DNA of 64,000 nt from Longimicrobiales bacterium (GTDB lineage Bacteria > Gemmatimonadota > Gemmatimonadetes > Longimicrobiales > Gaopeijiaceae). Both the position numbers and the translations under genes were made by a program. The stretch is from the NCBI GenBank assembly GCA_958295645.1, contig OY282361.1:516927-580926 (forward strand), written 5' to 3'. Below the pieces are notes generated by a model. That model was not told the origin of the DNA. It saw only the letters and a program-made list of their open reading frames with translations, and made no database searches. Positions 11,752-26,481 of the stretch are shown here, one piece after another. The first letter of the stretch is position 1; each line of letters opens with the position of its first letter.

Positions 11752-13170
11752 ATGACGTTGGACCTGTCAGCGGTTCAGAAGATGATCGCCAGCGGAGAGT
11801 CGGAGACCATCGAACTCAAGCGCAGCACGGCGGAGCGCGACCCGGCGGCGAGAGGGCTTTGCGCGATGCTCAACCACCGGGGCGGCAGTGTACTGTTCGG
11901 CGTGAGCCCCGATGGTGCGATCGTGGGACAGGAAGTCAGCGGCCGCACCATTGAACGTCTAGTCCAGCAGTTTGCGAAGATTGACCCGCCGGCCTTCCCT
12001 AGCGTGGACCGCGTCCCGGTCAGAGGCGAACTGGAAGTCATCGTTGTGACGGTCCCGGCTGGGCACAGCCGCCCGTACAGCTACAACAACCAGGCGTGGC
12101 GAAGAGTCGGCAACACCAACCGCGCCCTGTCGCGTGACGAATACAACCAGATGGTACTGAAGTTCATGCATGCGACGCGCAGATGGGAGAACGAGCCTGA
12201 GCCAACCTGGACGGTGGCCGACCTCGACGTGGAGGAGATTCGTCGAACGGTTGGGACGGCCGTCGAGATTGGTCGCCTGGACGAGCCGGACACGCGCGAG
12301 CCGCACGCGCTGTTGCGGGGGCTGGGTCTGACCGTCGAGGACGTGCTGTTGCGCGCGGCAGTTGTATTGTTCGGCAAGAAGGACCGCATGGCCGCGGAGT
12401 ATCCGCAATGCACGGTAAGGGCCGCTCGCTTCCTGGGGACGGATCGGTCGGAGTTCTTGGACAACCGGCAGTTTCACGGCAACGCGATTGAACTGCTGGC
12501 CAGCAGCCAGCGCTTCGTGCGGGAGAATCTCAGCATCGCCAGCAGGTTCGAGCCGGACAACTTCCTGCGGATCGACGAACCTTCGTATCCGCCGCTGGCG
12601 GTGCGCGAGGCTCTGGCGAACGCGATCTGTCATCGGGACTACTCGTCCGGGGGCGGGGCCATCCACCTTGCGATGTACGACGACCGATTGGAGATTGCTT
12701 CCCCCGGTGCCCTGCCTTCCGAACTCACGCCGAGCGCGTTGTACGAACCTCATCGCTCCCTGCCCTGGAACCCGCTGGTCGCCAATGTCTTCTTCCGTCG
12801 CGGGATCGTGGAGATGTGGGGCCAAGGCACGCTGAAGATGGTGAAACTGGCCACGGCCGCCGGCCTGCCCAGGCCGGAAATCGAGGACGAGCACGGAGCG
12901 GTGACAGTTCGTTTTCGGCCCGACGGTCACATTCCGCGATACGTACACGTCAAACTGTCCGGGCGACATCGGGCCATCTTGGCGCTTCTCGCCTCCAAGG
13001 GGCCGCTTCCCCTCCGCGAGATTGCCAAGGAGATACGGCGCGAGTCGGGGTCCCGCCATTCGATGGCACAGGAGAGGCGGAGGCTTCAGCAGGCGTTGCA
13101 GGAGCTGCAGGCATACCGCTTGGTCGAGTGCTGGGGCGCCGGATCCGGAGCGCTGTGGGAGCGCACGTAG
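11752..13170 (+). CDS. AlbA_2 (Schlafen-like) DNA-binding domain + HATPase_c_4 domain protein (RecG C-terminal-like / putative transcriptional regulator)
   Basis: N-terminal ESETIELKRS...GGSVLFGVSPDGAIVGQEV is AlbA_2-like. Histidine-kinase-like ATPase fold residues later (REALANAICHRDY). The codon GC is lower than in the flanking genes. Confidence 0.65.
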   Translation: MTLDLSAVQKMIASGESETIELKRSTAERDPAARGLCAMLNHRGGSVLFGVSPDGAIVGQEVSGRTIERLVQQFAKIDPPAFPSVDRVPVRGELEVIVVTVPAGHSRPYSYNNQAWRRVGNTNRALSRDEYNQMVLKFMHATRRWENEPEPTWTVADLDVEEIRRTVGTAVEIGRLDEPDTREPHALLRGLGLTVEDVLLRAAVVLFGKKDRMAAEYPQCTVRAARFLGTDRSEFLDNRQFHGNAIELLASSQRFVRENLSIASRFEPDNFLRIDEPSYPPLAVREALANAICHRDYSSGGGAIHLAMYDDRLEIASPGALPSELTPSALYEPHRSLPWNPLVANVFFRRGIVEMWGQGTLKMVKLATAAGLPRPEIEDEHGAVTVRFRPDGHIPRYVHVKLSGRHRAILALLASKGPLPLREIAKEIRRESGSRHSMAQERRRLQQALQELQAYRLVECWGAGSGALWERT

Positions 13171-13267
13171 TGCGAGTCCACAACGGTACCGAGCCCGACC
13201 TGGTGGCCGAGGAGCATCGCTTTACGGTTCGCCTGTTGAAGACGCGCGCAGAGTGAAGACAACGCCC

Positions 13268-16200
13268 ATGCTGGGTTCGGAATTCTCCAGAGCACCGGCC
13301 AAGAGAGAAGAATTGTCTTCACAAGCAGTGTGCTCAGCGGGGTTTGCTCTGGCTCTTTTCGCCGCCGCGGGATTCGCCTCGTCGCCCCTAGCCGCCCAGC
13401 CCTCCCCCGCCGCCCAACCTTCCCCCACCTCCCCCAACCAAACCCTCCTCGCAGGCCTCGAATTCCGCCCGCTCGGCCCCGCCTTCATGTCCGGCCGCAT
13501 CGCGGACATCGCCGTGGATCCCGCCGACCGAAGCACCTGGTACGTCGCGACCGCCTCCTCCAACGTCTGGAAGACCGAGAACCGGGGCACCACGTGGACG
13601 CCGGTCTTCGACGACTACCCGTCCTACTCCACGGGCGCCGTCGCCGTCGACCCCAACGACTCCAACGTGATCTGGCTGGGCGCCGGCGAGAACACCAGCC
13701 AGCGGAGCGTGGGTTGGGGCGACGGCGTGTACAGGAGCCTGGACGGCGGCCGCACCTGGGCGAACATGGGCCTTCGCACCTCCGAGCACGTGGGCAGGAT
13801 CGCGGTGGACCCGCGGGACTCGGACGTGGTCTACGTGGCGGCGATGGGCGGTCTGTGGGCGCCGGGGGGCGACCGGGGGCTGTTCAAGACGACCGACGGT
13901 GGCACGACCTGGGTTTCGGCGCTGCAGATCAGCGAGCACACGGGCGTCGCCGACGTTCACCTCGACCCTCGCGACCCGGACGTTCTCTACGCGGTGGCCT
14001 ACCAGCGGCGCAGGCATGTGGGCGTGCTGGTGGCGGGCGGCCCCGAGTCGGGGGTTTGGAAGAGCGTGGACGGCGGGGCGACGTGGCGCGACGTCACGAG
14101 GGGACTGCCGCAGGGCGACTTGGGGCGGATTGCGCTGGCCGTGTCGCCGGTGGACCCGGACGTGGTCTACGCCTTGGTCGCCGCCGCCGAGGATCGAAGC
14201 GGCTTCTATCGCTCGCCGGACCGGGCCGAGTCCTGGACCCGCATGTCCGGCTACATCGTGGTGGACCCCCAGTACTACGGCGAGCTCTATCCGGATCCTC
14301 ACCGCATGGACCGGGTCTACGCCGCGGACGTGCGGCTCCACGTCACCGAGGACGGCGGGCGGACCTTCGAGCCCGTCAACACGCGCTTCAAGCACGTGGA
14401 CAACCATGCCGTCGTCTTCGATCCGGCAGACCCGGAATACCTGCTCGTGGGCACCGACGGCGGCATCTACGAGTCCTTCGACCGGGCGAAGACATGGCGG
14501 TACGCAGCGAATCTGCCGCTGACCCAGTTCTACCGGGTCGGGCTGGACGACGCCGCGCCCTTCTACACCGTCTACGGCGGCACGCAGGACAACTCCTCCG
14601 TCGGCGGACCCTCCCGCACCGCCAACGTGCACGGCATCCGCAACAGCGACTGGTTCGTCACGCACGGGGGCGACGGCTTCCAGGTGCGGGTCGAGCCCGG
14701 CAACCCGAACATCCTCTACACGCAGTCCCAGTACGCCGGAATCGTCCGCTACGACCGGGCCAGCGGCGAAACCATCGACATCCAGCCCCAGCCCGAGGCC
14801 GGAGAAGGCGCGCTGCGCTGGCACTGGGACTCGCCGCTGCTGATCAGCCCGCACGATCCGCGCCGGGTCTGGTTCGCCGCCCAGAAGCTCTTCCGCTCCG
14901 ACGACCGCTCCGACCGCTGGACCGCCGTCAGCGGCGACCTGAGCCGCGGGCTGGATCGCAACCAGCGGCCCGTGATGGGGCGCATCTGGCCGCCGGAGGC
15001 CGTGTGGAAGAACGTCTTCACCTCCCCGTACGGGACGATCGTGGCGTTGGACGAGTCGCCGCTCGTCGAAGGGCTCCTCTACGTGGGCACCGACGACGGG
15101 CTGGTGCAGGTCAGCGAGGACGGCGGCGGCGCCTGGCGCCGACAGGAGGCGTTCCCCGGCGTCCCGGCCATGGCCTACGTGGCGGACGTGGTCGCCTCTC
15201 GCCACGAGCCGGATCGGGTCTACGCCGTCTTCAACAACCACAAGGAGGGGGACTTTCGGCCTTACGTGGCCCGGAGCGAGGATCGGGGAGCGACGTGGGA
15301 GGGCATCGCGGGGGACTTGCCGGAGGGGCAGGCGGCCTGGGCTCTGGTGGAGGACCACGTGGACCCGAACCTGCTGTTCCTGGGGACGGAATTCGGGCTC
15401 TTCGCGACGTTCGACGGCGCAGTGCCAGGCGATGGGACGCCGGGCGGCCGGGCTCGGAACGGCCGGACGCGGAACGGTCGGGCTCGGAGCGGCGGTCCCT
15501 CCTGGGTGCGGCTGAAGGGCGGCCTGCCCACGATCGCCGTGCGGGATCTGGAGATTCAGCGGCGCGAGAACGACTTGGTCCTGGCGACGTTCGGGCGCGG
15601 CTTCTACGTGCTGGACGACTACTCGCCGCTGCGGTTCATGGGAGAGGCGCTGGCGGTCGAGCAGGCGTATCTGTTCCCGGTGAAGGACGCCTGGGCCCAC
15701 GTCCCGAGCCGGCCCATGGGGGGACAGGAGAAGGGGACGATGGGCGACGCCTTCTTCAACGCGCCCAACCCGCCTTTCGGCGCCGTCTTCACGTACTATC
15801 TGCCCGAGGACTTCGAGTCGGCGAAGGAGCGCCGCAAGCGGGAGGAGCAGGAGCGCCTGGCCCGCGGGGAGGAGATCGCGTACCCGGAGCGGGAGACGCT
15901 GGCGGCCGAGGACGTGGAGCGGCCGCCCGAGGTGCTGCTGGTGGTCTCCGACGAGGCTGGCGACGTGGTGCGCCGGGTTCCCGGCCTCCGTCGGGCGGGG
16001 CTGCACCGAGTGGCGTGGAACCTGCGGTACGCCTCGACGGCGCCGCCCCGGCTGGCCGACAGGGAAGGGGACGGTCCCATGGTCGCGCCCGGCCTCTTCT
16101 CGGTTCGGCCGGTGATCGTTCGAGGCGGGGACTACGAGGAGCTGGCGCCGCCCCGGTCGTTCCGCGTCGAATCCCTGGGCGCGGCCACCCTGCCGGCCGC

Positions 16201-16684
16201 CGACCGCGACGCGCTCCTCGCCTTCCAGCGCGAAGTGGCCGCGCTCCAACGCGTCGCGGTCGCCGTCGACCGGGCGGCCCGGGAAACCGCCGAACGCCTA
16301 GACCTCCTCCGTCGCGCCGTCCGGGCGGTGCCCGGTCTGGACGCGGCTTCCTACGAGACGCGCATCGCCGCCTTCGAAGCCCGGCTCTTCGACGTTCGCC
16401 GCGTCCTCTCCCGGGACCGCACGGCGCTGGACCGCGCCGAGTTCGCGCCCCCGTCCATCATCGACCGGATCGGACGCATCGCACGAGCCGGCTTCACCGC
16501 CACCTCGGCGCCGACCGCGACCCACCGAGAGAGCCGGGCGGTCGCGTCGGACCAGCTGGCCGAAGTGTCCGAGGCGCTGCGGGCTCTGGTGGAAGACGAA
16601 CTGGCCGCGCTGGAGAGGGAACTGGAAGCCGCTGGCGTCCCGTGGACCCCGGGACGACCCATTCCCCGCTGGCCGCCCGGCTAG
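13268..16684 (+). CDS. Secreted BNR/Asp-box repeat protein (sortilin/VPS10-type, glycosyl-hydrolase-like beta-propeller)
   Basis: Signal-peptide-like N-terminus. Many SxDxGxTW Asp-box repeats (for example SLDGGRTW, TTDGGTTW, SVDGGATW, SEDGGGAW, SEDRGATW). ATG at 13268 is in the frame of the listed ORF 13022..16684. Confidence 0.75.
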   Translation: MLGSEFSRAPAKREELSSQAVCSAGFALALFAAAGFASSPLAAQPSPAAQPSPTSPNQTLLAGLEFRPLGPAFMSGRIADIAVDPADRSTWYVATASSNVWKTENRGTTWTPVFDDYPSYSTGAVAVDPNDSNVIWLGAGENTSQRSVGWGDGVYRSLDGGRTWANMGLRTSEHVGRIAVDPRDSDVVYVAAMGGLWAPGGDRGLFKTTDGGTTWVSALQISEHTGVADVHLDPRDPDVLYAVAYQRRRHVGVLVAGGPESGVWKSVDGGATWRDVTRGLPQGDLGRIALAVSPVDPDVVYALVAAAEDRSGFYRSPDRAESWTRMSGYIVVDPQYYGELYPDPHRMDRVYAADVRLHVTEDGGRTFEPVNTRFKHVDNHAVVFDPADPEYLLVGTDGGIYESFDRAKTWRYAANLPLTQFYRVGLDDAAPFYTVYGGTQDNSSVGGPSRTANVHGIRNSDWFVTHGGDGFQVRVEPGNPNILYTQSQYAGIVRYDRASGETIDIQPQPEAGEGALRWHWDSPLLISPHDPRRVWFAAQKLFRSDDRSDRWTAVSGDLSRGLDRNQRPVMGRIWPPEAVWKNVFTSPYGTIVALDESPLVEGLLYVGTDDGLVQVSEDGGGAWRRQEAFPGVPAMAYVADVVASRHEPDRVYAVFNNHKEGDFRPYVARSEDRGATWEGIAGDLPEGQAAWALVEDHVDPNLLFLGTEFGLFATFDGAVPGDGTPGGRARNGRTRNGRARSGGPSWVRLKGGLPTIAVRDLEIQRRENDLVLATFGRGFYVLDDYSPLRFMGEALAVEQAYLFPVKDAWAHVPSRPMGGQEKGTMGDAFFNAPNPPFGAVFTYYLPEDFESAKERRKREEQERLARGEEIAYPERETLAAEDVERPPEVLLVVSDEAGDVVRRVPGLRRAGLHRVAWNLRYASTAPPRLADREGDGPMVAPGLFSVRPVIVRGGDYEELAPPRSFRVESLGAATLPAADRDALLAFQREVAALQRVAVAVDRAARETAERLDLLRRAVRAVPGLDAASYETRIAAFEARLFDVRRVLSRDRTALDRAEFAPPSIIDRIGRIARAGFTATSAPTATHRESRAVASDQLAEVSEALRALVEDELAALERELEAAGVPWTPGRPIPRWPPG
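15451..15495 (+). repeat. In-frame 15-bp tandem repeat (x3) inside the BNR protein (encodes ARNGRTRNGRARSGG)
   Basis: ggctcggaacggccg / gacgcggaacggtcg / ggctcggagcggcgg. Confidence 0.5.
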
Positions 16685-17079
16685 CCCAGGCGCAGGAGTC
16701 CCTGTCCCGGCGTCCCGCTTCTGCTGCGACGCATCGCGACGTCAGCTTGCGACGAACCGAGTCGACCGTGATCCCCCGAAATCCCGCCTGCTGTTCGATC
16801 CAGGCATGGTTGGCAAGCAGGCGCTCCGTGTGATGTAGCACCAAGAGGCCCCCCTGCATGAATGGAGACGCAGTCGGGCCGAATTCCGGCGTGTCATTTT
16901 TCTTCACGCCCTCTTCAACGAGCATGTCCGATCCTGGGCTGGCGGGGACTGTCGGCAACCCAATCGTCCCGTCGCGTCGGGAGTGTCACACCGGTCGGCT
17001 ATCCTTTCGCCGAAACCCGGTCGCTCCGGCTTTGACGCTTCGCCCGGTCGCTCCAGGCAAGTCCTAATAGGGAGGGAAC

Positions 17080-17481
17080 ATGAAGAGCAGGATGAAGACG
17101 CTTGTCGGATTGGCAATTGGCGCGCTCGCGTTGCCGCTGGTTGCCTGCGAATCCATGATGCCGGAACGATATTCCCGTGTGCGGCTTTCCCTGCCGACCA
17201 CCGTCACTGTTGCAAGAACCGAAACCGTCGGCCAGTGGGCCCTAGTGAGGGTCGGCGATGGTCTCGAGGAGCGCCTGTCTGTCATGATCGCAAGGAAAGA
17301 CGAGGAAACGGGCATGTTTCATATCGTTGCGGATTGCCAGGGCAGCTACGTCATCGAGGCCACGTCGCCGCAAGGCGCCTACATCGCGACCGCGTCGTTC
17401 AGGGTCGACAGGACTTTTGGCGGGTGCGAAGTCGATTGGATCGTGCCCCCGTCGTGGGACGAGCCCACTCGCGTCTCCTAG
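17080..17481 (+). CDS. Hypothetical lipoprotein
   Basis: Signal peptide with an LVAC lipobox, and a good RBS (GGAGGGAACATG). The GC content is lower than the surroundings. Confidence 0.55.
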   Translation: MKSRMKTLVGLAIGALALPLVACESMMPERYSRVRLSLPTTVTVARTETVGQWALVRVGDGLEERLSVMIARKDEETGMFHIVADCQGSYVIEATSPQGAYIATASFRVDRTFGGCEVDWIVPPSWDEPTRVS

Positions 17482-17532
17482 CGTCCCGGCAGGCGTGTCT
17501 GGCGGCCGTCGAGCGCGTCCGCCAGACGCCTG

Positions 17533-18786
17533 TCACGGCCCCATCGTTCCTATCGGGATCACGCCGACCCGTCCATTGGGAACCGCTCCGTATCCGCTGG
17601 GAACGATCACGGCCAAGGCGGCAGGCTCGCCATAGTTGCTGCTGGCCTTCATCCGCTTGGCGATCTTCGCAAGGTTGGCCATGCCTTCCGCGATCCGGCG
17701 CTCGCCCAGCTTGACCTCGAACGCCGCCCATCTGCCCTCGCCGTCTTCGACGATGGCGTCCACTTCCAGGCCGTCCTTTTCTCTGTAGTGGAACACATGG
17801 GCGTCGGCGGCTTGGGCGTAGACCCGAAGGTCCCGGATCACCATTGACTCGAAGAGGAGGCCGAGCGTCGCCAGGTCGCCTATCAGACGGGACGGGGTGG
17901 CACGCGACGCCGCAACCGCCAGCGACGGATCCGCAAAGTGCCTCACGGGCGTCTTGCGCAGGGTGGTTCGAGAACGCAAGTGCGGCGACCACGCGGGCTG
18001 GTCCTCGACGATCATGAGCCGCTCCAGAACCTCCAGGTATTCGGCGGCCGTGCTGTCCTTGAAGGCGGGTCCAGTGCCTCGAACGTCTCTGGCCAGCGTC
18101 GCGACGCTCGCCGGCGTGGCCACGTTGCGGGCCAGCGACTGCAACAGCCTTCCGACCTTGACGGGGTCGCGGCGCTTGTCTCCCGCCTGCTGAATGTCGG
18201 CGCGCTGGATCTCCGACAAGTAGTCCCGGTTGGCTCTCATGGCTTGCGCGAGGTTGCGGCCCAAGTTTCCGGGCCAGCCCCCGGCGCACACCAGCTCCGC
18301 GAGGCGCCGAATGGCGAGGATGGACCGAGCCGACCGCTGGGGTTCTCCCGCCAACAGGCCGGCCAACGATATCTCTCCCGTGGACTGTCCCGCCTCGAAG
18401 AGCGACATCGGACGCATCCGCAATCGAGTAAGGCGTCCCGCGCCGGTATGGCGGGTGATGTCGTCGGCGGGCACGGCCGAACCAGTGAGGACGAACTGGC
18501 CAGGGAGGCCCCGCCTGTCCACGGACTTGCGGATGTGGTTCCATATGGCCGGTTTCGTCTGCCATTCGTCGACGAGGCGGGGCGTGTCGCCTTCGAGGAC
18601 GGACGCCGGGTCGACATCGACCATCTCGCGGGCGGCGGCGTCCACGTCCAGGAACACCGCGCTGGCTGCTACCGTCTCGGCAGTCGCGGTCTTTCCGCAG
18701 GCCTTGGGGCCCTCGATGACGACCGCGCCAGTGGCCGACAGCCTTTCGGCCAGCTCCGCGTCGACGATCCGGGGAAGGTACTTCAT
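17533..18786 (-). CDS. AAA_14/DUF4143-family ATP-binding protein (second copy of this family in the window)
   Basis: Starts at MKYLPRIVDAELAERL...VIEGPKACGKTATA (Walker A). The 33 codons upstream in the listed ORF cross the repeat array and are not coding. Confidence 0.8.
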   Translation of the reverse strand: MKYLPRIVDAELAERLSATGAVVIEGPKACGKTATAETVAASAVFLDVDAAAREMVDVDPASVLEGDTPRLVDEWQTKPAIWNHIRKSVDRRGLPGQFVLTGSAVPADDITRHTGAGRLTRLRMRPMSLFEAGQSTGEISLAGLLAGEPQRSARSILAIRRLAELVCAGGWPGNLGRNLAQAMRANRDYLSEIQRADIQQAGDKRRDPVKVGRLLQSLARNVATPASVATLARDVRGTGPAFKDSTAAEYLEVLERLMIVEDQPAWSPHLRSRTTLRKTPVRHFADPSLAVAASRATPSRLIGDLATLGLLFESMVIRDLRVYAQAADAHVFHYREKDGLEVDAIVEDGEGRWAAFEVKLGERRIAEGMANLAKIAKRMKASSNYGEPAALAVIVPSGYGAVPNGRVGVIPIGTMGP

Positions 18787-18841
18787 GATTCTGAACGAAT
18801 AAGCTTCCGACGCGGCTCCGGCAAGACCGCCGCGAGCCGCC

Positions 18842-18905
18842 AGGGGAAGATTCGGCGAAGTTTTAGGGGAAGATTCGGCGAACAATCAGGGGAAGATTCG
18901 GCGAA
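18842..18905. repeat. Three direct copies of an 18-bp motif AGGGGAAGATTCGGCGAA at a 23-bp period (iteron-like array)
   Basis: Copies at 18842-18859, 18865-18882 and 18888-18905 with 5-nt spacers. The array lies 56 bp upstream of the minus-strand ATPase start and downstream of the unknown-function gene. Confidence 0.9.
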
Positions 18906-19057
18906 GTATGGTCGTTCTGCCTCGAAACGGCTTTGACGACCAGCCCGCCTCCGGCGCATTCTGGTGCTTCGCAAGCCGTCTGGGCGCCGTCATTCCGTGC
19001 CTGGCGGGTCGTCGCCACGCCCAAGGAGCTTTCTGATAGCCTGCTTGGCCGACCGCA

Positions 19058-20206
19058 TCAATCGCTTTCGTCTGGGGGATCGGACCGGCCGATCTTCTTG
19101 AGGCGCTCTTCCACTTCCTCGGCGGCCGCTGAAGTCAGCGTTGCTATGCGGGATGCAAGATCTCTCAACACTCCCGTGTCGTCGGCCTTCTTCGCAAGGA
19201 GGGTGACAGTCATCCCGGCGAGGATGCTCGCGACCAGCGCGACCGATGCGGGACCGCCGGCTACCGCGACCAGGGGCACCACGGCCATCGGCGCTGCGGT
19301 TCCCACCGCGCCTTCTATCAACTCCTTCACGCAACCCTCGTAGTCTCCGGTCTTGCGGCCCTCCGTGAACGCCTTTGCCAGGGCTGCGAAGGCCACGACT
19401 CCGACGATTGGATTGCGCTTGACGACCGCGACTAGCCCAGTGTTTGCGAAGATGCGCGCGAAGTGCTTGACTTCGCCTCTATTCCAGCGGAAGAGGAGAG
19501 CCGCGCTGCCAAGCAGGCTGGACGCGATGTCGGCCGCGTCGTAGGTGACCAGATCCGCAAACCACTTCTTGGGCATGCCGAACTTCGCCTTGAGCGAGTT
19601 GGCGACTCTGTGGTACGCATCTTCGTTCCAGGTGAGGAAAGGCAGGCCGGCAGAGGTGGTGACGTCTCGGAAGAGAGAGGACGATATTCCCTTGGCTCGG
19701 GTTACGATACCGTCGTCGATGCCAGCGTTTCTTGCGGCTTTGAACGCGCCCCAGGGCGTATGGCTCCCGTCGAATATTCGATGCAGACCGCCGCCGATCC
19801 CGGTCTTCAGAAACTCGGCGTCCATCGCCTTGTCGTAGATCGTCGGAGCGCCCTTGACCAACTGCCCCAGCATGTCGTTCAAGTTGGTCGCCAGCTGAGT
19901 GGCCAGGACCCCTTGACCCATGTCGTGGAGCCACTTGACCGCCCTTGACGCGGCCCGGGCGGTGCGGCGGCGTAGTGGTGCAGCGCTGTCGTAGGCCCAC
20001 GCCAAGGCATCTCCCGCCGTGGACGCGGCCCCATGCACTCGCCCGGCGACTAGCACCAGGACCTTCGACCAGCATCCCGGAGGCAGCTTGTCCGGCCGCC
20101 GACGCTCGTCGAGATCGGCTTCGACCCATTCCCTGATTGTCGTTGCCGCCGGATCGGACTTGCGAGTCAGTGTTTCCGGCGAATGCTCTCCGCGGTTCCT
20201 CGGCAT
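19058..20206 (-). CDS. Hypothetical protein of unknown function (paralog copy 1), with a C-terminal Gly/Ala-rich hydrophobic segment
   Basis: 382-aa ORF. Residues ~60-382 are ~80-90% identical at the DNA level to the C-terminal half of the 21302..23323 gene. No recognised domain. Confidence 0.6.
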   Translation of the reverse strand: MPRNRGEHSPETLTRKSDPAATTIREWVEADLDERRRPDKLPPGCWSKVLVLVAGRVHGAASTAGDALAWAYDSAAPLRRRTARAASRAVKWLHDMGQGVLATQLATNLNDMLGQLVKGAPTIYDKAMDAEFLKTGIGGGLHRIFDGSHTPWGAFKAARNAGIDDGIVTRAKGISSSLFRDVTTSAGLPFLTWNEDAYHRVANSLKAKFGMPKKWFADLVTYDAADIASSLLGSAALLFRWNRGEVKHFARIFANTGLVAVVKRNPIVGVVAFAALAKAFTEGRKTGDYEGCVKELIEGAVGTAAPMAVVPLVAVAGGPASVALVASILAGMTVTLLAKKADDTGVLRDLASRIATLTSAAAEEVEERLKKIGRSDPPDESD

Positions 20207-20251
20207 CGTGGACTTCTCCTCTCGCGACTACGGTGAGCGTGGCGGGCGCTC

Positions 20252-21094
20252 GAACCTATCTCAAAAACCGAGATGCTTGAAGAAGATGCAGATCGCCGAC
20301 AGCTGCACGAAGGCCAGAAAGTTCTCCGGATGATGCTCCCAGCGGATCAGAAGCCTGCGCTTCCACTGCATCCAGCCGAAGAACCGCTCCACGATCCACC
20401 GCCGCTTCGCCCGGCGCAGACGGCGACCGTCCTGCGTGCGCCGTCTCCGGTTGCGACGGTGCGGCGCGATCATCTCCACCCCCCGCTCCCGCAGTGCCGC
20501 GTCCAGAGCGTCGCTGTCGTACGCCTTGTCTCCGATCAGGTTCGCCGGCGCCTCCTGCGCGAAACGCCAAGTCCAACGACAACTGCACCAGCTTCGATTC
20601 GTGCGGGTTGGCCGGATGCGTGCTCAACGACAGCGGAAGCCCGCAACGGTCCACGATCGCCATGATCTTCACGCCCTTGCCCGCCTTCGCGACTCCCACG
20701 TCCGCACCCCCGCCCTTTGCCCGCGCGAACGACGCGTCCACGTACGCCTCCGTTCCGTCGAAGAGGCCCCGCTGCTTCGCTTCCCCCGCCAAGTCCTCCA
20801 GCACTCGCTCGAGCACACCCGCCCGGACCCACGCTTGAAACCGCCGGTGCACCGTCTTGTAGTTCGGGCAGCACTGCGGCAGAAACCGCCACTGCGCCCC
20901 CGTGTGCAGAATCCACAGCACCGCTTCCAGCACACGCCGAGTCGGCGCCGGCGGCCGTCCCCGCCTCCCCTTCGGCCTCGCCTCCTCGGGAAAGTGGCAA
21001 CGCACACGCTCCCACTGCCTGTCGCTCAAAAGCACTTCCTTCATGCTTGAACATACCCCATCTCGTCGACCCCCGCAACCTTCTCATGTTTTTG
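20252..21094. mobile_element. IS5-family insertion sequence (about 843 bp) with imperfect ~18-bp terminal inverted repeats
   Basis: IRL GAACCTATCTCAAAAAC (20252-20268). IRR GTTTTTGAGATAAGTTC (21078-21094), which is the reverse complement with one mismatch. Possible 2-bp target duplication TC. It encodes an IS5-type DDE transposase. Confidence 0.65.
20261..21044 (-). pseudogene. IS5-family DDE transposase, reading frame broken by a +1 shift
   Basis: N-terminal MKEVLLSDRQWERVRCHF...AIVDRCGLPLSLSTHPANPHESKLVQ in one frame. The continuation ...FAQEAPANLIGDKAYDSDALDAALRERGVEMIAPHRRNRRRR...IVERFFGWMQWKRRLLIRWEHHPENFLAFVQLSAICIFF is in the +1 frame. The frames switch near 20560-20585 with no slippery heptamer. 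Confidence 0.7.
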
Positions 21095-21209
21095 AGATAA
21101 GTTCTCACACTTGTTGCTAGTCTTCGTCAGTTTCGCGACGTTCGCAAGTGTGGCTGCGCCGTCCTCGGATCGTTCTGGTTCTGTTCCGGCAAGACGTCCG
21201 CGGGGCGAC

Positions 21210-21250
21210 AGGGGAAGATTTGGCGAAACTTTAGGGGAAGATTCGGCGAA
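21210..21250. repeat. Two direct copies of the same 18-bp motif (AGGGGAAGATTTGGCGAA / AGGGGAAGATTCGGCGAA) at a 23-bp period
   Basis: Copies at 21210-21227 and 21233-21250. They are the homologous counterpart of the 18842-18905 array, inside the duplicated segment. Confidence 0.9.
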
Positions 21251-21301
21251 ACTCTCGGCCCTCCGGCACACTCTGGCGCTCCGCAAGCCGTCTGGGCGCC
21301 G

Positions 21302-23323
21302 TCATTCCGTGCCTGGCGGGTCGTCGCCACGCCCAAGGAGCTTTCTAGTCGCCTGGCCTGGCGGGTCGTTGCCACGCCCAAGGAGCTTTCTAATCGCCGG
21401 CTTGGCCGACCGGATCAATCGCTTTCGTCCGGGGGGCCGGCCGATCTTCTTGAGGTGCTCTTCCGCTTCCTCGGCGGCCGCTGAAGTCAGCGTTGCTATG
21501 CGGGATGCAAGATCACTCAACACTCCCGTGTCGTCGGCCTTTTTCGCGAGCACGGTGACAGTTATCCCGGCGAGGATGCTCGCGGCCAGCGCGACCGATG
21601 CGGGGCCGCCCGCCGCCACGACCAGGGGCACCACGATCATCGGCACTGCGGTCCCCGCCGCGCCTTCTGCCAACTCCTTCACGCAACCCTCGTAGTCTCC
21701 GGTCTTGCGACCCTCCGTGAACGCCTTCGCCAAGGCGGTGAAGGCCACAACTCCAACGATTGGATTGCGCTTGAGGATCGCGACTAGCCCAGTGCTTGCG
21801 AAGATGCGCGCGAAGTGCCTGACTTCGCCGTCATTCCAGCGGAAGAGGAGTGCCGCGCTGCCAAGCAGTCCGGACACGATGTCGGCCGCGTCGTAGGTGA
21901 CCAGATCCTCGAACCACTTCTTGGGCATGCCGAACGTCGCCTTGAGCCAGTCGGCGATCTTGTGGTAGGCATCTTCGTTCCAGGTGAAGAAAGGCAGGCC
22001 GGCAGTGGTGGTGACGTCTCGGAAGAGCGAGAACGTTATTTCCTTGGCTCGAGTTATGATGCTGTCGTCGATGCCAGCGTTTCTTGCGGCTTTGAACGCG
22101 CCCCAGGGCGTATGACCTCCATCGAATACTCGGTGCAGGCGGCCGCCGATCCAGGTCCTCAGAAACTCGGCGTCCATCGCCTTGTCGTAGATCGTCGGGG
22201 CACCCTTGACCAACTGCGCCAGCATGTCGTTCAGGTTGGTCGCCAGCAGAGTGGTCAGGGCTCCTTGACCCATATCGTGGAGCCAGTTGACTGCCGTTGA
22301 CGCAGCTCGGGCCGTACGTCGGCGCAGAGGTGCTACCCACGCCAAGGCATCCTCCGCCGTGGGCGCAGCCATCGCCCGCTGACGCAGGAGCGCCAGCACC
22401 AAGTCGATCGTAGGCGTAGGCGTGCCCACCAGCCCCGCCATTTCTTGCACGGCGGCGCCCATGGCGTCGATCTCCAACGGACGCCCAGCCTGCAAGTCCT
22501 GCAGCATTGACGTTCGGTGTGCGCCGACCTTGCCGGTTCCGTCTATCCGCTTCTCCAGGCTGATGCGAAACCGGACGCCCAGGGCTTCGCCGACCTGTTG
22601 GGCCTCGGCCATCATCGACTTGGCCACGGTGCGTGTGCCGAGCTCGCTCGCAATCCGGTCCAGCGTGGCCAACGTCAGTGCGCTGATGGGGTTGAAGGCA
22701 ACATTGCCCCAGAGCTTGACCCAGATCTCGTCGCGAATCGGACGCACCCGGGCGCGGAAGCCGGCTTCGGCCAAGATGTGGCGAAGCGTCTCGACCCGTT
22801 TTGTGCTTTCGCCCGAGGGCTCGCCCAGCGTCAACCGGTCCTCGGACAGATGGCGGATCACGCCGGGCGCCACGATCTCCGTGGCCGGGTAGACGACGCA
22901 CCCGATGGCCCGCTCGGGGCCGATCCCGTCCCACTGCTTCCCGCCGGGATCGACGCTATCGAGGCGGTGGCCGTCGAAGTCGCCGCCCGAGCGGTAGAAG
23001 TACCACCAGGGCACGCCGTTTTGTGCAGTGACGACCGCTGTGTTCGGACCGAGCAGAGGCTGCATCGCGTCGACCGCGCCCGGGGTGGCGTGCGCCTTCA
23101 GCGTCACGATCACGTAGTCTTGGGGGCCGGCCTCCGCTGGATCGTCGGTGGAGAAGGGCCGCGCGTTCAGTTCTCCTTTGTCGGTGATCACCGTCACGCC
23201 GTCCTGCCGCATCGCCTCCAAGTGCGGCCCGCGGGCGATCAGCGTCGTTTCCACGCCGACTTGCGCCAACCGCAGGCCCAGGTACCCGCCCGTGGCGCCC
23301 GCGCCGAAGACCGCGACCTTCAC
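21302..23323 (-). CDS. panE: Fusion protein: N-terminal 2-dehydropantoate 2-reductase (PanE/ApbA) + C-terminal paralog copy 2 of the unknown-function protein
   Basis: N-terminus MKVAVFGAGATGGYLGLRLAQVG... is ketopantoate-reductase-like for about 320 aa. It continues in frame with no stop, through an internal Met (MAAPTAEDALAW...), into a ~330-aa region homologous to 19058..20206. GTG start overlaps the stop of the upstream acyl-CoA synthetase. Confidence 0.65.
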   Translation of the reverse strand: MKVAVFGAGATGGYLGLRLAQVGVETTLIARGPHLEAMRQDGVTVITDKGELNARPFSTDDPAEAGPQDYVIVTLKAHATPGAVDAMQPLLGPNTAVVTAQNGVPWWYFYRSGGDFDGHRLDSVDPGGKQWDGIGPERAIGCVVYPATEIVAPGVIRHLSEDRLTLGEPSGESTKRVETLRHILAEAGFRARVRPIRDEIWVKLWGNVAFNPISALTLATLDRIASELGTRTVAKSMMAEAQQVGEALGVRFRISLEKRIDGTGKVGAHRTSMLQDLQAGRPLEIDAMGAAVQEMAGLVGTPTPTIDLVLALLRQRAMAAPTAEDALAWVAPLRRRTARAASTAVNWLHDMGQGALTTLLATNLNDMLAQLVKGAPTIYDKAMDAEFLRTWIGGRLHRVFDGGHTPWGAFKAARNAGIDDSIITRAKEITFSLFRDVTTTAGLPFFTWNEDAYHKIADWLKATFGMPKKWFEDLVTYDAADIVSGLLGSAALLFRWNDGEVRHFARIFASTGLVAILKRNPIVGVVAFTALAKAFTEGRKTGDYEGCVKELAEGAAGTAVPMIVVPLVVAAGGPASVALAASILAGITVTVLAKKADDTGVLSDLASRIATLTSAAAEEAEEHLKKIGRPPGRKRLIRSAKPAIRKLLGRGNDPPGQATRKLLGRGDDPPGTE
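21312..21401 (-). repeat. 45-bp in-frame tandem duplication at the 3' end of paralog copy 2 (encodes the repeated RKLLGRGxDPPG)
   Basis: Units at 21312-21356 and 21357-21401 (cctggcgggtcgtcgccacgcccaaggagctttctagtcgcctgg / cctggcgggtcgttgccacgcccaaggagctttctaatcgccggc). Present once in copy 1 at about 19010-19055. Confidence 0.8.
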
Positions 23324-25007
23324 GTCGGCCTGGGACGGGCCGGGGACTCCGCTCGCGCCCCGGACTTTGCCCGGTGCTCACCATCCGCTGTTCCACTCGT
23401 GTCCTTCGTCGCGCCGAGTCCAAGCCGCTCGGCCAACCCGATCCGCTGCACTTTGCCCGTGGGCCCCGTGGGGATTGCGTCCATGATCACAATCTCGCGC
23501 GGCACCTTGAATGCGGCAAGGCGCTCGGACGCGAAAGCGCGGATGCCGTCCGGTGCGGCCGATTCGCGGTCCGCGTCGGTTTCCTCCTTCGGCGCACGTA
23601 AGGCCCCCTCCCGCAGCACCACTGCGGCCGCCACCTCCTCGCCCAGCTTCGGATGCGGGATGGCGAAGGTCACCGCCTGTCGCACGCCGGCATGTTGCAT
23701 GAGGACTTCGTCCACTTCGCGCGGCGACACTTTCTCGCCGCCCCGGTTGATGATCTCCTTCAAGCGCCCGGTGACGGCGAAGCAGCCGTCTTCGTCGCGA
23801 AAGCCTTGGTCGCCGGTGCGAAACCAGCCGTTGGTGAACGCGGCCTCGTTGGCGGCTGGGTTGTTCTCGTATCCAGGCGTCACGTTGGGGCCGCGAACGA
23901 CGATCTCGCCCGTCTCGCCGGGCGGCAGATGGACGCCGTCCTCGTCCATGACCGACATTTCGGGTCCCGCCGCCGGACCCACCGTGCCCAGCTTGCGACG
24001 CGCCGGGAGCAAGGGACTGCAAGTCATCTGATGGGCGGCCTCGGTCATGCCGTACGATTCCAGGACGGGTGCGCCGAAGGTCTCTTCCAGCTCGCGGGCA
24101 ACGCGAGTCGGCAGAGCCGCCGAAGAGGAGCGAACGAAGCGTAGCCGCGCACGCGCCACGGCCTCCGGGTTCCGCGCGGCGCGGGCCAAGACGGCTTGAT
24201 GCATGGCCGGGACGGCGGAATACCACGTTGGGACGCAGTCGTCCATCCAGCCGAAGAACTTGAGAGCGTCGAACCCCGGCGCGCAGTAGACGCAGGCCCC
24301 CGCCGCCAGCGACCCCAAGACGCAGGCCGCCAGCCCGTGGATGTGGAACAGCGGCATGACGTTCAGGCAACGGTCGCCGGGAACCAGCGACAACGCCTCC
24401 CGAATATGCAGCGCGGAGGCGCACAGGTTCCGGTGAAGCAGGGGAACGACCTTGGGGCGGGATGTGGTGCCCGACGTGTGGAGAACCAAGGCGGTGTCGT
24501 TGGGCCTGGCCGGGTCGCTGGGCCGGGCCATCCCGTCCGACCCGGCCTCGCCCGCCCGCTTGCCCCTGTCGCAACCCGCCGCCCCCACGATGCGAAACGT
24601 CCCGGTGGGATCGCCCTCCTGCACGCGGATCTCCAGCACGGCCACGTCCAGAGCGGCAGCCGCCGACCGTGCCCGGGAATCGCAGCCCTCCGTCAACATC
24701 AGCGCCTTGATCCCCAGGTCCGACAAGTAGAAGGCGAACTCGCGCTCCGTGTACGCGGGATTCAGCGGCGCCGCCACGGCCCCGGTAGCGACCGACACGA
24801 AAGCCGCCGCCGCCTCGGGTCCGCCGGGCAGGACGATGGCCACCCGGTCGCCTCGTCCCACGCCCCGGTCGCGCAACCCTCCGATCGTCCGCACCGCGTG
24901 CTTGCGCAGACAGTCGTAGGTCGCGCTGCGGCGTCCGGGGGCCGCAAGCGCAAAGTCGTTGGGCGCACCGGCCAGGAGCAGGTCGAAGACGGTGGAGGGG
25001 GCGGTCA
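23320..25007 (-). CDS. AMP-dependent synthetase/ligase (acyl-CoA synthetase family)
   Basis: AMP-binding motif LHTSGTTSRPKVV, followed by GYGMTE- and TGD-type motifs. The start was taken at MTAPSTVFDLL (ATG 25007); an upstream ATG at 25059 is an alternative. Confidence 0.8.
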
Positions 25008-25230
25008 TGCCGATGAGAATCGCATCACGACCGTCCTGCCCCAAGCCCGCCGCCGACATACGCCGTGCGCCGCAAGGGTCGCAAGAGACTGGAGCAGACT
25101 CACGTTCGACGGATGCCCGAGCGCCTGGGACGCCGGCGGGGAGACCGCCCGGTAGCGCGGGTTTGCGGCTTCTCGCCTTGCCAATCATCTTCGACACTGC
25201 AATGACGGCGGCCGCGCAAGAGATCGATTC

Positions 25231-26481
25231 ATGGGGAAAATCGAAGGAATCAGGGTCAAGAACTACCGAGTCCTCAAGAACGTCGTATTCGGCAAGTTGT
25301 GGAACACGCAGAAAGTCGCACCGCTGACTCCGCTGACCGCGGTCATTGGCAAGAACGGAGTCGGCAAGAGTTCTCTTTTCGACGCCTTTGGTTTCTTGGC
25401 CGACTGCCTGAAGTTGGGCGTCGAGGAGGCCTGCGACGCTCGTGGCCGTGGCGGCTTCCAGCGCATCCGGTCCCAAGGGAGTAAGGAGCCGATCGAATTC
25501 GAGATTTGTTATCGACAAGATTCGAGAACTCGGCCTATCACGTACGAACTCGCCATCGACAGCGACAACTCCCGTCGCCCCTATGTGTCAAGCGAGCGTC
25601 TCAGGCAACGGCGCAGGGGTCAGCGCTACGGTCGGCCCTTCTCGTTCTTGATCATGGAAGACGGGAAGGGCGTTGCCTGGAAGGGAGATGCCCACGCGCC
25701 GGTAGAAGCGTCCGGCTCCGAGTTGGACAAGTTGCGGGAGATTGGGTCAGAGGAGAGCGCGGACAGGGAAGAGGTAGAACTCGAAGACAAGCGCAGGTTG
25801 GGCATCGCGACGCTTGGCGCGCTGAAGCAGCATCCCCGCATGTCGTCGTTTCGCAATTTTGTGGAGGGTTGGTACCTGAGCTATTTTGCCCCGAACACTG
25901 CCCGTGGCTTGCCGTTGGCCGGGCCGCAAAGGCACTTGAGCGTCCATGGCGACAATCTAGGCAATGTAGTTCAGTTCATGGAACGCCGGCACCCGCGACG
26001 ATTCAAGGGCATCTTGCAACGGATTTCCGAGAGAGTACCCGGAATCCACAATATTGATACTGATCGAAGCCCTGATGGGCGACTGTTGCTCCGGTTTAAC
26101 GACAAGGGGTTCCAAGATCCGTTCTATGCACAGCAGGTGTCCGACGGCACGTTGAAGTTGTTTGCCTACTTGCTCTTGCTGGAAGACCCTTCGCCACCGC
26201 CGTTTATTTGCGTCGAAGAACCGGAAAACGGACTGTATCACAAGTTGCTGGAAACTCTTGCTCGCGAGATGCGCGATCATGCGCCGAAGACGCAAGTTCT
26301 TGTCACGACGCACCAGCCTTACTTTGTTGACGCGCTCAGCCCAAACGAGACGTGGATACTCGAGAAAGGAGCCGATGGGTTCGCCGCGATTCGGCGGGCG
26401 AGCGACGACCCCATAGTCGAATCGATGGTGAACGAGGGTCTGCCGCTCGGTAGCCTCTGGTACGGCGATTATCTGGATTGA
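25231..26481 (+). CDS. AAA_21/AAA_15-type (SMC/ABC-like) ATPase, orphan
   Basis: N-terminus IEGIRVKNYRVLKNV...LTAVIGKNGVGKSSLFDA (Walker A). Q-loop/signature-like QQVSDGTLKLFAYLLLL. Walker B FICVEEPENGLYH. TTHQPYFV near the C-terminus. The codon GC (~50-55%) is well below the flanking ~70%. Confidence 0.75.
   Translation: MGKIEGIRVKNYRVLKNVVFGKLWNTQKVAPLTPLTAVIGKNGVGKSSLFDAFGFLADCLKLGVEEACDARGRGGFQRIRSQGSKEPIEFEICYRQDSRTRPITYELAIDSDNSRRPYVSSERLRQRRRGQRYGRPFSFLIMEDGKGVAWKGDAHAPVEASGSELDKLREIGSEESADREEVELEDKRRLGIATLGALKQHPRMSSFRNFVEGWYLSYFAPNTARGLPLAGPQRHLSVHGDNLGNVVQFMERRHPRRFKGILQRISERVPGIHNIDTDRSPDGRLLLRFNDKGFQDPFYAQQVSDGTLKLFAYLLLLEDPSPPPFICVEEPENGLYHKLLETLAREMRDHAPKTQVLVTTHQPYFVDALSPNETWILEKGADGFAAIRRASDDPIVESMVNEGLPLGSLWYGDYLD

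Follow-up and report, generated by a model that had tools for sequence, protein, structure and literature searches.

Segmental duplication of a PanE fusion gene, probable loss of an ATPase copy, and a conserved upstream repeat array in a Longimicrobiales bacterium

Here, we analyzed a 64,000-nucleotide (nt) stretch of DNA (hereafter the window) from a Longimicrobiales bacterium (Gemmatimonadota; GenBank assembly GCA_958295645.1, contig OY282361.1), in which the following features all lie on the minus strand: an acyl-CoA synthetase gene (acs), a gene fusing a PanE-type ketopantoate reductase to a member of a protein family that we call X (panE::X), an IS5-family insertion sequence (IS), a free-standing second copy of X, and a DUF4143 ATPase gene, accompanied by two short arrays of direct repeats. 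This arrangement probably arose by partial tandem duplication, loss of one ATPase copy, and IS insertion, with the arrays forming the control region of the ATPase and X possibly serving as an anchor. What a preliminary description of the same DNA had treated as one accessory module is three things: a partly duplicated fusion gene, an ATPase control region together with the remnant of a second ATPase gene, and a later IS insertion.

A duplicated segment and the remnant of an ATPase gene

The two copies of X lie in minus-strand blocks of ~1.2 kb, unit 1 at 18817-20030 and unit 2 at 21185-22370, which blastn aligned at 85.1% identity over 1218 positions with 14 gaps, and the encoded X proteins are 84% identical across 323 codons. 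Because the blocks differ by 15%, an assembly duplication is excluded, and the segmental duplication of X proposed in the preliminary description stands. Copy 2 (21302-22363, minus strand) forms residues ~321-673 of the fusion protein, whose single 673-amino-acid (aa) reading frame occupies 21302-23323 (minus strand), and was recognized by alignment and by its family motifs, with no Pfam match. Copy 1 (19058-20206, minus strand) is free-standing and 382 aa long, with a conserved core at residues ~100-345, and likewise has no Pfam match at E ≤ 0.01.

Between the units, the IS interrupts sequence that resembles the DUF4143 gene. When the IS was removed in silico and its flanks were joined (21167-21105 + 20251-20225), local alignment placed the resulting ~90 nt on the 3' end of the intact ATPase gene (17603-17692) with a score of 30, compared with 12.3 ± 1.6 and a maximum of 19 for shuffled sequences, i.e., ~11 standard deviations above the shuffles, and at the protein level EDGAATLANVAKLTKTSNKCES aligns with AEGMANLAKIAKRMKASSNYGE. 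The upstream half of this remnant lies at 21105-21167 and the downstream half at 20225-20251, both on the minus strand. Since the remnant matches the DUF4143 3' end, unit 2 formerly held its own ATPase gene; the expectation that an ATPase gene follows every copy of X therefore holds for the original state and for copy 1, and no longer for copy 2.

The IS had been placed exactly at the junction of the duplicated units; by this alignment, it appears instead to sit inside the remnant of the lost ATPase gene, with 80 nt between it and the end of the unit-2 homology on one side and 221 nt to the beginning of the unit-1 homology on the other. The element (20252-21104, minus strand, 853 bp) was delimited by an inverted-repeat search, which gave 17-nt terminal inverted repeats at 20252-20268 and 21088-21104 that are complementary at 16 of 17 positions. 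Its open reading frame (ORF) matches Pfam DUF4096 (85 bits) and, partially, DDE_Tnp_1 (19.8 bits, below the cut-off of 23), and three-frame translation located the rest of the DDE region in another frame, i.e., the transposase is split across two reading frames. The element occurs once in the window and is 82% identical at the nucleotide level to the copy in the related genome of locus L009 (see below). The dinucleotide GA stands on both of its sides, as a short target-site duplication would, but the L009 copy aligns through those bases, which may belong to the element, so its true ends may be 20250 and 21106. Separately, locus L005 (5405-6715; protein P0016, also P0018), in a different metagenome, has X fused in frame behind the first ~105 codons of an IS5-type transposase that is 54% identical to that of the window, which ties this IS type a second time, and independently, to the 5' side of X.

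When one genome per GTDB species was scanned, 211 loci with relatives of X emerged (comparison loci are cited by L numbers), the nearest of which are in Longimicrobiales (Gemmatimonadota) metagenome-assembled genomes (MAGs). Locus L008 has the gene order of the window with a single X: a divergent HEC-01A-like ATPase gene, acs, panE::X, repeats, and the DUF4143 gene. The L009 genome (OZ241892.1; also L207, 1-9257) carries acs, a 365-aa PanE without X, a VapB-like gene and a PIN gene, a 3-unit array, and an intact DUF4143 gene and, ~7 kb further along OZ241892.1, panE::X followed by an array of two units, a DUF4143 pseudogene with a frameshift, and an IS of the IS5 type found in the window. Duplication of a PanE/X/ATPase segment followed by decay of one ATPase copy thus appears to have happened at least twice independently, and the locus is apparently a rearrangement hotspot.

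The ancestor would have been arranged as in L008, with acs, a single-ORF panE::X, a 23-nt-period array, and the DUF4143 ATPase gene in succession. Tandem duplication would have copied a segment that began in the PanE-X linker and took in X, the array, and the ATPase gene; the ATPase gene of the upstream unit would then have been deleted, save its array and ~90 nt of its 3' end; and the IS5-family element would have entered this remnant. The downstream X, now without PanE, would be read from a new ATG behind a GGAG in the remnant or junction sequence, and purifying selection would have kept both X copies intact. The start codon of copy 1 is preceded by GAGAGGAGAAG, which falls within the ATPase remnant or junction sequence, and the GGAG in the remnant half at 20225-20251 is predicted to be used as the ribosome-binding site. 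As an instance of tandem segmental duplication with pseudogenization and IS insertion, the locus resembles others in its co-linear direct blocks, sister paralogues, decay of one redundant gene, and an IS within the decayed part; it differs in that the cutting of a fusion gene at its linker freed a domain with its own start, and in that the same locus was also independently rearranged in a related genome.

The PanE::X fusion and its duplicate

The window indeed contains the fusion that had been reported between PanE and X, as well as the GTGA overlap and the IS5 element. The PanE/ApbA (2-dehydropantoate 2-reductase family) domain (22364-23323, minus strand) comprises residues 1-320 of the fusion, and its Pfam matches ApbA and ApbA_C (90 and 91 bits) span residues 3-316, the only part of the protein that Pfam recognizes. 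For the same N-terminus, NCBIfam NF005089 scores 469 bits (cut-off, 223), with a match spanning 1-320 of 326. On these full-length matches above curated cut-offs, we assign the domain to the PanE/ApbA family, with reductase activity predicted. The first 320 residues therefore match PanE/ApbA ketopantoate reductases over their full length, and the protein differs from them by a C-terminal X of ~350 residues with hydrophobic helices, which is kept in four Longimicrobiales genomes. The PanE part is 64-78% identical to the PanE proteins of L007, L008, L009, and L207.

The acyl-CoA synthetase gene upstream (23320-25008, minus strand; Pfam AMP-binding, 250 bits, and AMP-binding_C) probably starts at ATG 25008, giving 562 aa as in the L207 orthologue, or at ATG 25059, and its stop overlaps the panE::X start as GTGA, read directly in the sequence. 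This translational coupling of acs to panE::X is conserved.

The fusion had been taken as the mark of a recently evolving module, a view that its distribution contradicts. PanE and X form one unbroken ORF in three other Longimicrobiales MAGs (L007, L008, and L009), and P0153, a cluster representative at 50% identity, is also a PanE::X protein; a fourth relative, L012, has X as a free-standing gene. Because the same in-frame ORF recurs in L007, L008, L009, and P0153, the fusion appears to be ancestral in the clade, and the free-standing copy 1 of the window appears to be a derived partial duplicate. Further, the X copies of the window are 54-67% identical to their Longimicrobiales orthologues compared with 84% to each other, and so the duplication was intragenomic and followed the species splits. 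Within the fusion ORF, the guanine-plus-cytosine (GC) fraction is 0.63 in the X part (21302-22330) compared with 0.68 in the PanE part (22331-23323), and copy 1 has 0.64; this low GC is compatible with a foreign origin of X, by horizontal acquisition before the fusion.

The age of the duplication had been given as recent. Copies 1 and 2 differ by 0.22 synonymous (dS) and 0.09 nonsynonymous (dN) substitutions per site, with a dN/dS of 0.41, compared with a dN/dS of 0.27-0.34 for orthologous X pairs. Their dS slightly exceeds the 0.17 of the species-level pair L008/L009, and the duplication is therefore not very recent. Both copies appear to remain intact under purifying selection, and every residue invariant in the family is present in both. 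Relative to the orthologues, the linker of copy 2 is shorter, four codons are deleted, and the C-terminal tail is extended; in this tail, a repeat search and reading of the sequence found a 45-nt tandem duplication, RKLLGRGNDPPGQAT / RKLLGRGDDPPGTE (21311-21400, minus strand). In copy 1, the 45-nt unit is single and out of frame following an indel, which makes this copy end earlier. A relative-rate test of copy 1 against copy 2 was not significant (28 vs 17 derived changes, p = 0.14), with some N-terminal columns unreliable.

Repeat arrays upstream of the DUF4143 ATPase

The ATPase gene (17533-18786, minus strand; COG1373) encodes 417 aa with Pfam matches to AAA_14 (36 bits) and DUF4143 (122 bits), and we take ATG 18786 as its real start because orthologous ORFs begin there. 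The protein also matches the PADLOC profile PDC-S01 (PDLC04790) at 236 bits over 385 of 422 profile positions; PDC-S01 is a candidate defence system only. The array upstream of the gene consists of three 18-nt units, TTCGCCGAATCTTCCCCT, at a 23-nt period (18842-18905, minus strand) and ends 55 nt before the DUF4143 ATG. The second array (21210-21250, minus strand), of two units, aligns with the unit-1, L008, and L009 intergenic regions as an orphaned DUF4143 upstream array. The individual units are at 18842-18859, 18865-18882, 18888-18905, 21210-21227 (one mismatch), and 21233-21250, which reproduces the three plus two copies first reported; no other match with ≤3 mismatches occurs in the window, and the five found compare with 0.06 expected by chance. 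Between array and gene lies a spacer (18787-18841, minus strand), conserved in alignments and promoter-like, that reads TTGCCG - 17 nt - TATTCG, with the ATG 9 nt later. No Shine-Dalgarno sequence precedes this ATG, and the ATPase mRNA may be leaderless.

The arrays had been described as the downstream region of the duplicated X gene. The ATPase subfamily comprises 7844 proteins at E ≤ 1e-40, the best 120 of which are all at least 67% identical to the window protein, with orthologues at 84-89% identity in other Longimicrobiales and at 67-72% in other phyla. Ten upstream regions were sampled: those of the window, L008, and L009 and those of seven loci without X, namely L207, L208, and L209 (Longimicrobiales-like, 84-89% ATPase identity, with a PIN toxin gene upstream) and L211, L213 (an Acidobacteria MAG), L216 (a Chromatiales MAG), and L217 (a JGI metagenome), at 67-72% ATPase identity. 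A 23-nt-period array of 2-8 units stands ≤300 nt from the start codon in all ten of these subfamily members, which cover 67-100% identity and several phyla. In the intergenic region between panE::X and the ATPase gene, the same motif and period occur in four units in L008 (6092-6178) and two in L009; at the loci without X, the arrays lie at 3886-3949 in L207, 3816-3948 in L208, 3793-3948 in L209, 2828-2913 in L211, 2880-2940 in L213, ~1379-1424 in L216, and ~1346-1426 in L217. Array position is conserved in L008, L009, L207, L208, and L209, and the loci with arrays include some that have a PIN toxin, cytochrome, or acyl-CoA dehydrogenase gene upstream instead of X. As the proteins diverge, the unit drifts (TTCGCCGAATCTTCCCCT, TCTGCCGAATCGTCCCCT, TCGACAAATCACCCGCT, TCTGCCGTTTTACCCGTT, and ATTCTGCCTGTTGAAACTTCCTC) and the 23-nt period stays unchanged. 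A TTGCC hexamer follows 12-17 nt past the array end in eight of the ten loci, L211 and L217 having none, and in the six Longimicrobiales-type sequences TAnTnn follows ~17 nt after TTGCC, with the ATG 9-10 nt further and no Shine-Dalgarno sequence.

Because arrays are present with the ATPase where X is missing, and absent in L007, where PanE::X is present and the ATPase is not, we conclude from these alignments that they are probably a promoter-proximal element of this DUF4143 ATPase subfamily and not part of the X gene. No array precedes the more distant DUF4143 genes of L001 and L076. In JGI metagenomes, motif scans gave no matches to a dimer pattern and only isolated chance matches to a single unit, and viral contigs, when searched, contained nothing closely related to the ATPase. 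One publication places DUF4143 in the PD-(D/E)XK superfamily, with function unknown (PMC3424549). Given this classification, of a DNA-handling type, the co-variation of array and gene, and the independence of the arrays from their neighbors, we infer that the arrays may be operators for a DNA-binding protein with sequence specificity, the ATPase being the simplest candidate. To our knowledge, an upstream 23-nt array has not been described before for the COG1373/DUF4143 family, and the DUF4143 papers that we found are not on regulation.

Among known systems, the iterons of plasmids pSC101, P1, F, and R6K and the parC site of plasmid R1 are operators through which an adjacent gene is autoregulated. 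The arrays resemble these in having several direct repeats, each of ~18 nt and with a period of roughly two helical turns, that lie immediately upstream of the adjacent gene and abut its promoter, and in a repeat sequence that co-varies with that gene; an iteron-type architecture (direct repeats of 17-22 bp at a ~22-bp period beside a gene) is present at all ten loci, with a putative binder. They differ in being chromosomal (contigs of 2.9-4.5 Mb), in having no Rep, ParR, or ParB protein, in having no DnaA boxes or AT-rich unwinding element in the sequences read, and in adjoining an AAA_14 + DUF4143 gene whose product would be the binder. Since components of replication and partition are absent, the arrays are not filed as iterons or parC. 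A clustered regularly interspaced short palindromic repeat (CRISPR) array was also considered and rejected: the units are 18 nt with 5-nt gaps, compared with repeats of ~24-48 nt and unique spacers of similar length. Compared with COG1373/DUF4143 ATPases in general (PDC-S01), the window protein is alike in its AAA_14 and DUF4143 domains and its PDC-S01 match, and its subfamily is set apart by the upstream 23-nt array, absent from more distant members.

Family X, rival explanations, and significance

Family X has 714 cluster representatives at E ≤ 1e-3 among 1.84 billion, and a word-indexed search returned 147 homologues. The earlier statement that X has no recognizable domain was borne out: X had no meaningful match in Pfam, NCBIfam, PADLOC, or PHROG (best, NF038396 at E 0.065 and LmuA at E 0.008 over 38 residues) and no PDB-fold match, and its profile matched PDB sequences only at E > 0.4 (apolipophorin and designed helical proteins). 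EcsC is absent from the 25 families listed, ranked by how many members they match, of the 87 families that match at least one of 116 aligned homologues at E ≤ 1. The conserved part, ~250 residues, contains the motifs GxPTIYDKAMDA, GGxxHRLFDGxHT, RDVTTPxGLP..W, IPKxWF.DL, NP, and AGGP and ends in a hydrophobic tail; its invariant residues are G119, D129, G139, H142, R143, D146, G147, H149, A154, D181, T184, G187, W193, W241, F249, and N265. Three hydrophobic segments follow the core, with a nearly invariant GGP turn linking the second to the third, and hydropathy places them at residues 258-276, 299-317, and 320-338 of copy 1, in keeping with the hydrophobic C-terminus noted earlier. AlphaFold2 (AF2) models have a predicted local distance difference test (pLDDT) score of 83-95 where the conserved polar residues lie, and X is all-helical, with conserved His, Asp, and Arg residues in a cluster and a hydrophobic hairpin at its C-terminus.

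The modules N-terminal to X vary and include PanE, amphipathic repeats, a DUF4096 / IS5 transposase fragment, and a helix-turn-helix. Among the 116 homologues, N-terminal matches, all weak, were to Apolipoprotein (20), ApoLp-III (13), and Phasin_2 (5). By analogy only, many X homologues resemble apolipoproteins and phasins in their N-terminal amphipathic repeats, and X resembles oleosin-like hairpin proteins in its hydrophobic, Gly/Ala-rich hairpin that turns at Gly-Gly-Pro; homology to these proteins is not significant, and none of them has a counterpart of the X core. X might be a protein anchored at a membrane or lipid surface, with a metal- or ligand-binding core, and we infer that it may anchor its variable N-terminal module, PanE here and apolipoprotein-like amphipathic repeats elsewhere, to a membrane or lipid surface.

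The hosts of X are MAGs of at least eight phylum-level lineages, including Longimicrobiales, Binatia, Chloroflexota (Dehalococcoidia, SAR202), Ca. Poriferisodalis and other Acidimicrobiia, Vicinamibacterales, Bryobacterales, several gammaproteobacterial lineages, and Alphaproteobacteria. Many of these MAGs come from sponges: the APA_bin records, from Aplysina aerophoba, and SB0661, from Ircinia ramosa, are sponge-symbiont bins (PMC11706023), and the Poriferisodalaceae have been described as known sponge symbionts (PMC12988363). ORF clustering of 80 loci for a conserved neighbor of X returned only lineage-specific synteny, and outside Longimicrobiales X never adjoins PanE or acyl-CoA synthetase. 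An HpcH/HpaI-type aldolase gene lies 1-4 kb from X in 22 of these 80 loci (L014-L069), in Dehalococcoidia and Ca. Poriferisodalis, with varying relative position and strand, and in Dehalococcoidia the genes on either side of X are BNR/sialidase-like and AP_endonuc_2 (xylose-isomerase-like). The idea that X and the repeats form a mobile element, with the arrays as end-binding sites, was set aside: X homologues occur in unrelated, non-mobile contexts, and the arrays track the ATPase.

Several points weigh against the history and roles proposed here. For the duplication, 194 nt at the N-terminus of copy 1 (20031-20224, ~59 residues) match nothing, and searches of the window, of the sequence past the ATPase gene, of the linker of the fusion, and of 86 loci returned no significant source; the exact end-points of the duplicated segment were not recovered, and those adopted here are estimates. 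The ATPase remnant is short (90 nt, ~70% identity) and could in principle derive from a different DUF4143 paralogue, not from the duplicate. For the arrays, a generic sigma-70 promoter scan did not call the proposed TTGCCG/TATTCG promoter, and an unlinked regulator would fit equally well, save for the co-variation of array and gene. For X, the apolipoprotein-like matches reach no better than E 4e-5, which is weak, and do not occur in the window copies, AF2 confidence is below 50 for the hydrophobic hairpin, and the polar cluster (D129, H142, R143, D146, H149, and D181) suggests catalysis or ligand binding over a mere anchor.

We weighed four other explanations against this reading. That copy 1, its array, and the ATPase gene arrived separately from a closely related strain, by recombination or with the help of IS5, and landed beside a resident panE::X is improbable. 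The IS between the units, the GC of the region (0.652 compared with 0.68-0.69 in its flanks), the different rearrangement of the same locus in the L009/L207 genome, and the lack of a detectable local source for the 194-nt 5' stretch of copy 1 would suit such an arrival, but only one IS copy is present, hence no composite transposon, and the units are co-linear, in direct orientation, and each other's closest relatives. In addition, the sequence is continuous across the IS insertion site, and therefore the IS came after the units were already adjacent. It is very unlikely that the arrays act as RNA or as recombination or phase-variation sites, whether by slippage that switches the ATPase or as the 3' untranslated region or terminator of the upstream gene, rather than as operators. 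Unit numbers of 2-8 among close relatives are as expected of slippage-prone repeats, and in two genomes the locus is a segmental-rearrangement hotspot; however, an Rfam covariance search of 17000-26000 gave no match at E ≤ 1, a terminator scan found no terminator-like hairpin in the array region, the upstream gene varies while the distance from array to ATPase start is fixed, and whole 23-nt units leave the register between last unit and promoter unchanged.

The remaining two bear on what X and the ATPase do. A possible, if doubtful, alternative, which overlaps with partial duplication and ATPase loss and touches only the role of X, is that X is an enzyme in a pathway with PanE and acyl-CoA synthetase (e.g., a membrane-bound, metal-dependent hydrolase or transferase), with copy 1 as a dosage or sub-functionalized paralogue. 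It would account for the invariant D129, H142, R143, D146, H149, D181, T184, and N265 in KAMDA, HRLFDGxH, and RDVTTP, which fall in the best-modelled part (pLDDT 83-95), for the conserved coupling of acs and panE::X, and for a dN/dS below 1 in both copies, but outside Longimicrobiales X has neither PanE or acyl-CoA synthetase adjacency nor a conserved neighbor, and it has no fold or sequence likeness to any enzyme family. Rather unlikely is a bolder proposal, in which the ATPase and its array would be a self-contained unit: the ATPase would recognize its own array as an iteron-like self-marker and autoregulator, the number of array copies would tune ATPase expression, and arrays and gene copies would serve as recombination substrates behind local duplications like that of the window. 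X, separately, would be a horizontally spread membrane family tied to sponge symbiosis, having a novel fold and an active site of His/Asp type.

As to the surroundings, the 17-27 kb region, with its lower GC than the flanks, resembles a defence or variable island. In divergent orientation, an AAA_21 ATPase gene (25231-26481, plus strand) matches the PADLOC candidate HEC-01A at 626 bits and has a GC of 0.57, compared with ~0.69 for the genome; the same position is kept in L008. On the other side, a small ORF (17080-17481, plus strand) with a lipoprotein-type signal (…LPLVAC…) is convergent with the 3' end of the DUF4143 gene, and a large BNR/sortilin-type repeat protein, typical of Gemmatimonadota, is encoded upstream of the region (13022-16684, plus strand).

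Together, these comparisons suggest that the event itself is routine genome turnover, which matters mainly as a correction: the fusion is the norm of its clade, and the repeats are probably the control region of another gene. The X family and the 23-nt arrays of the DUF4143 subfamily are two uncharacterized components of modest interest of their own. The arrays would provide a simple regulatory architecture, abutting a promoter and co-varying across phyla, for the widespread and unstudied COG1373/DUF4143 family. X, a family of ~700 clusters that is absent from Pfam and NCBIfam and has no relative of solved structure, is a candidate symbiosis-associated family, comparable in kind to the sponge-symbiont families recently highlighted (PMC11706023).

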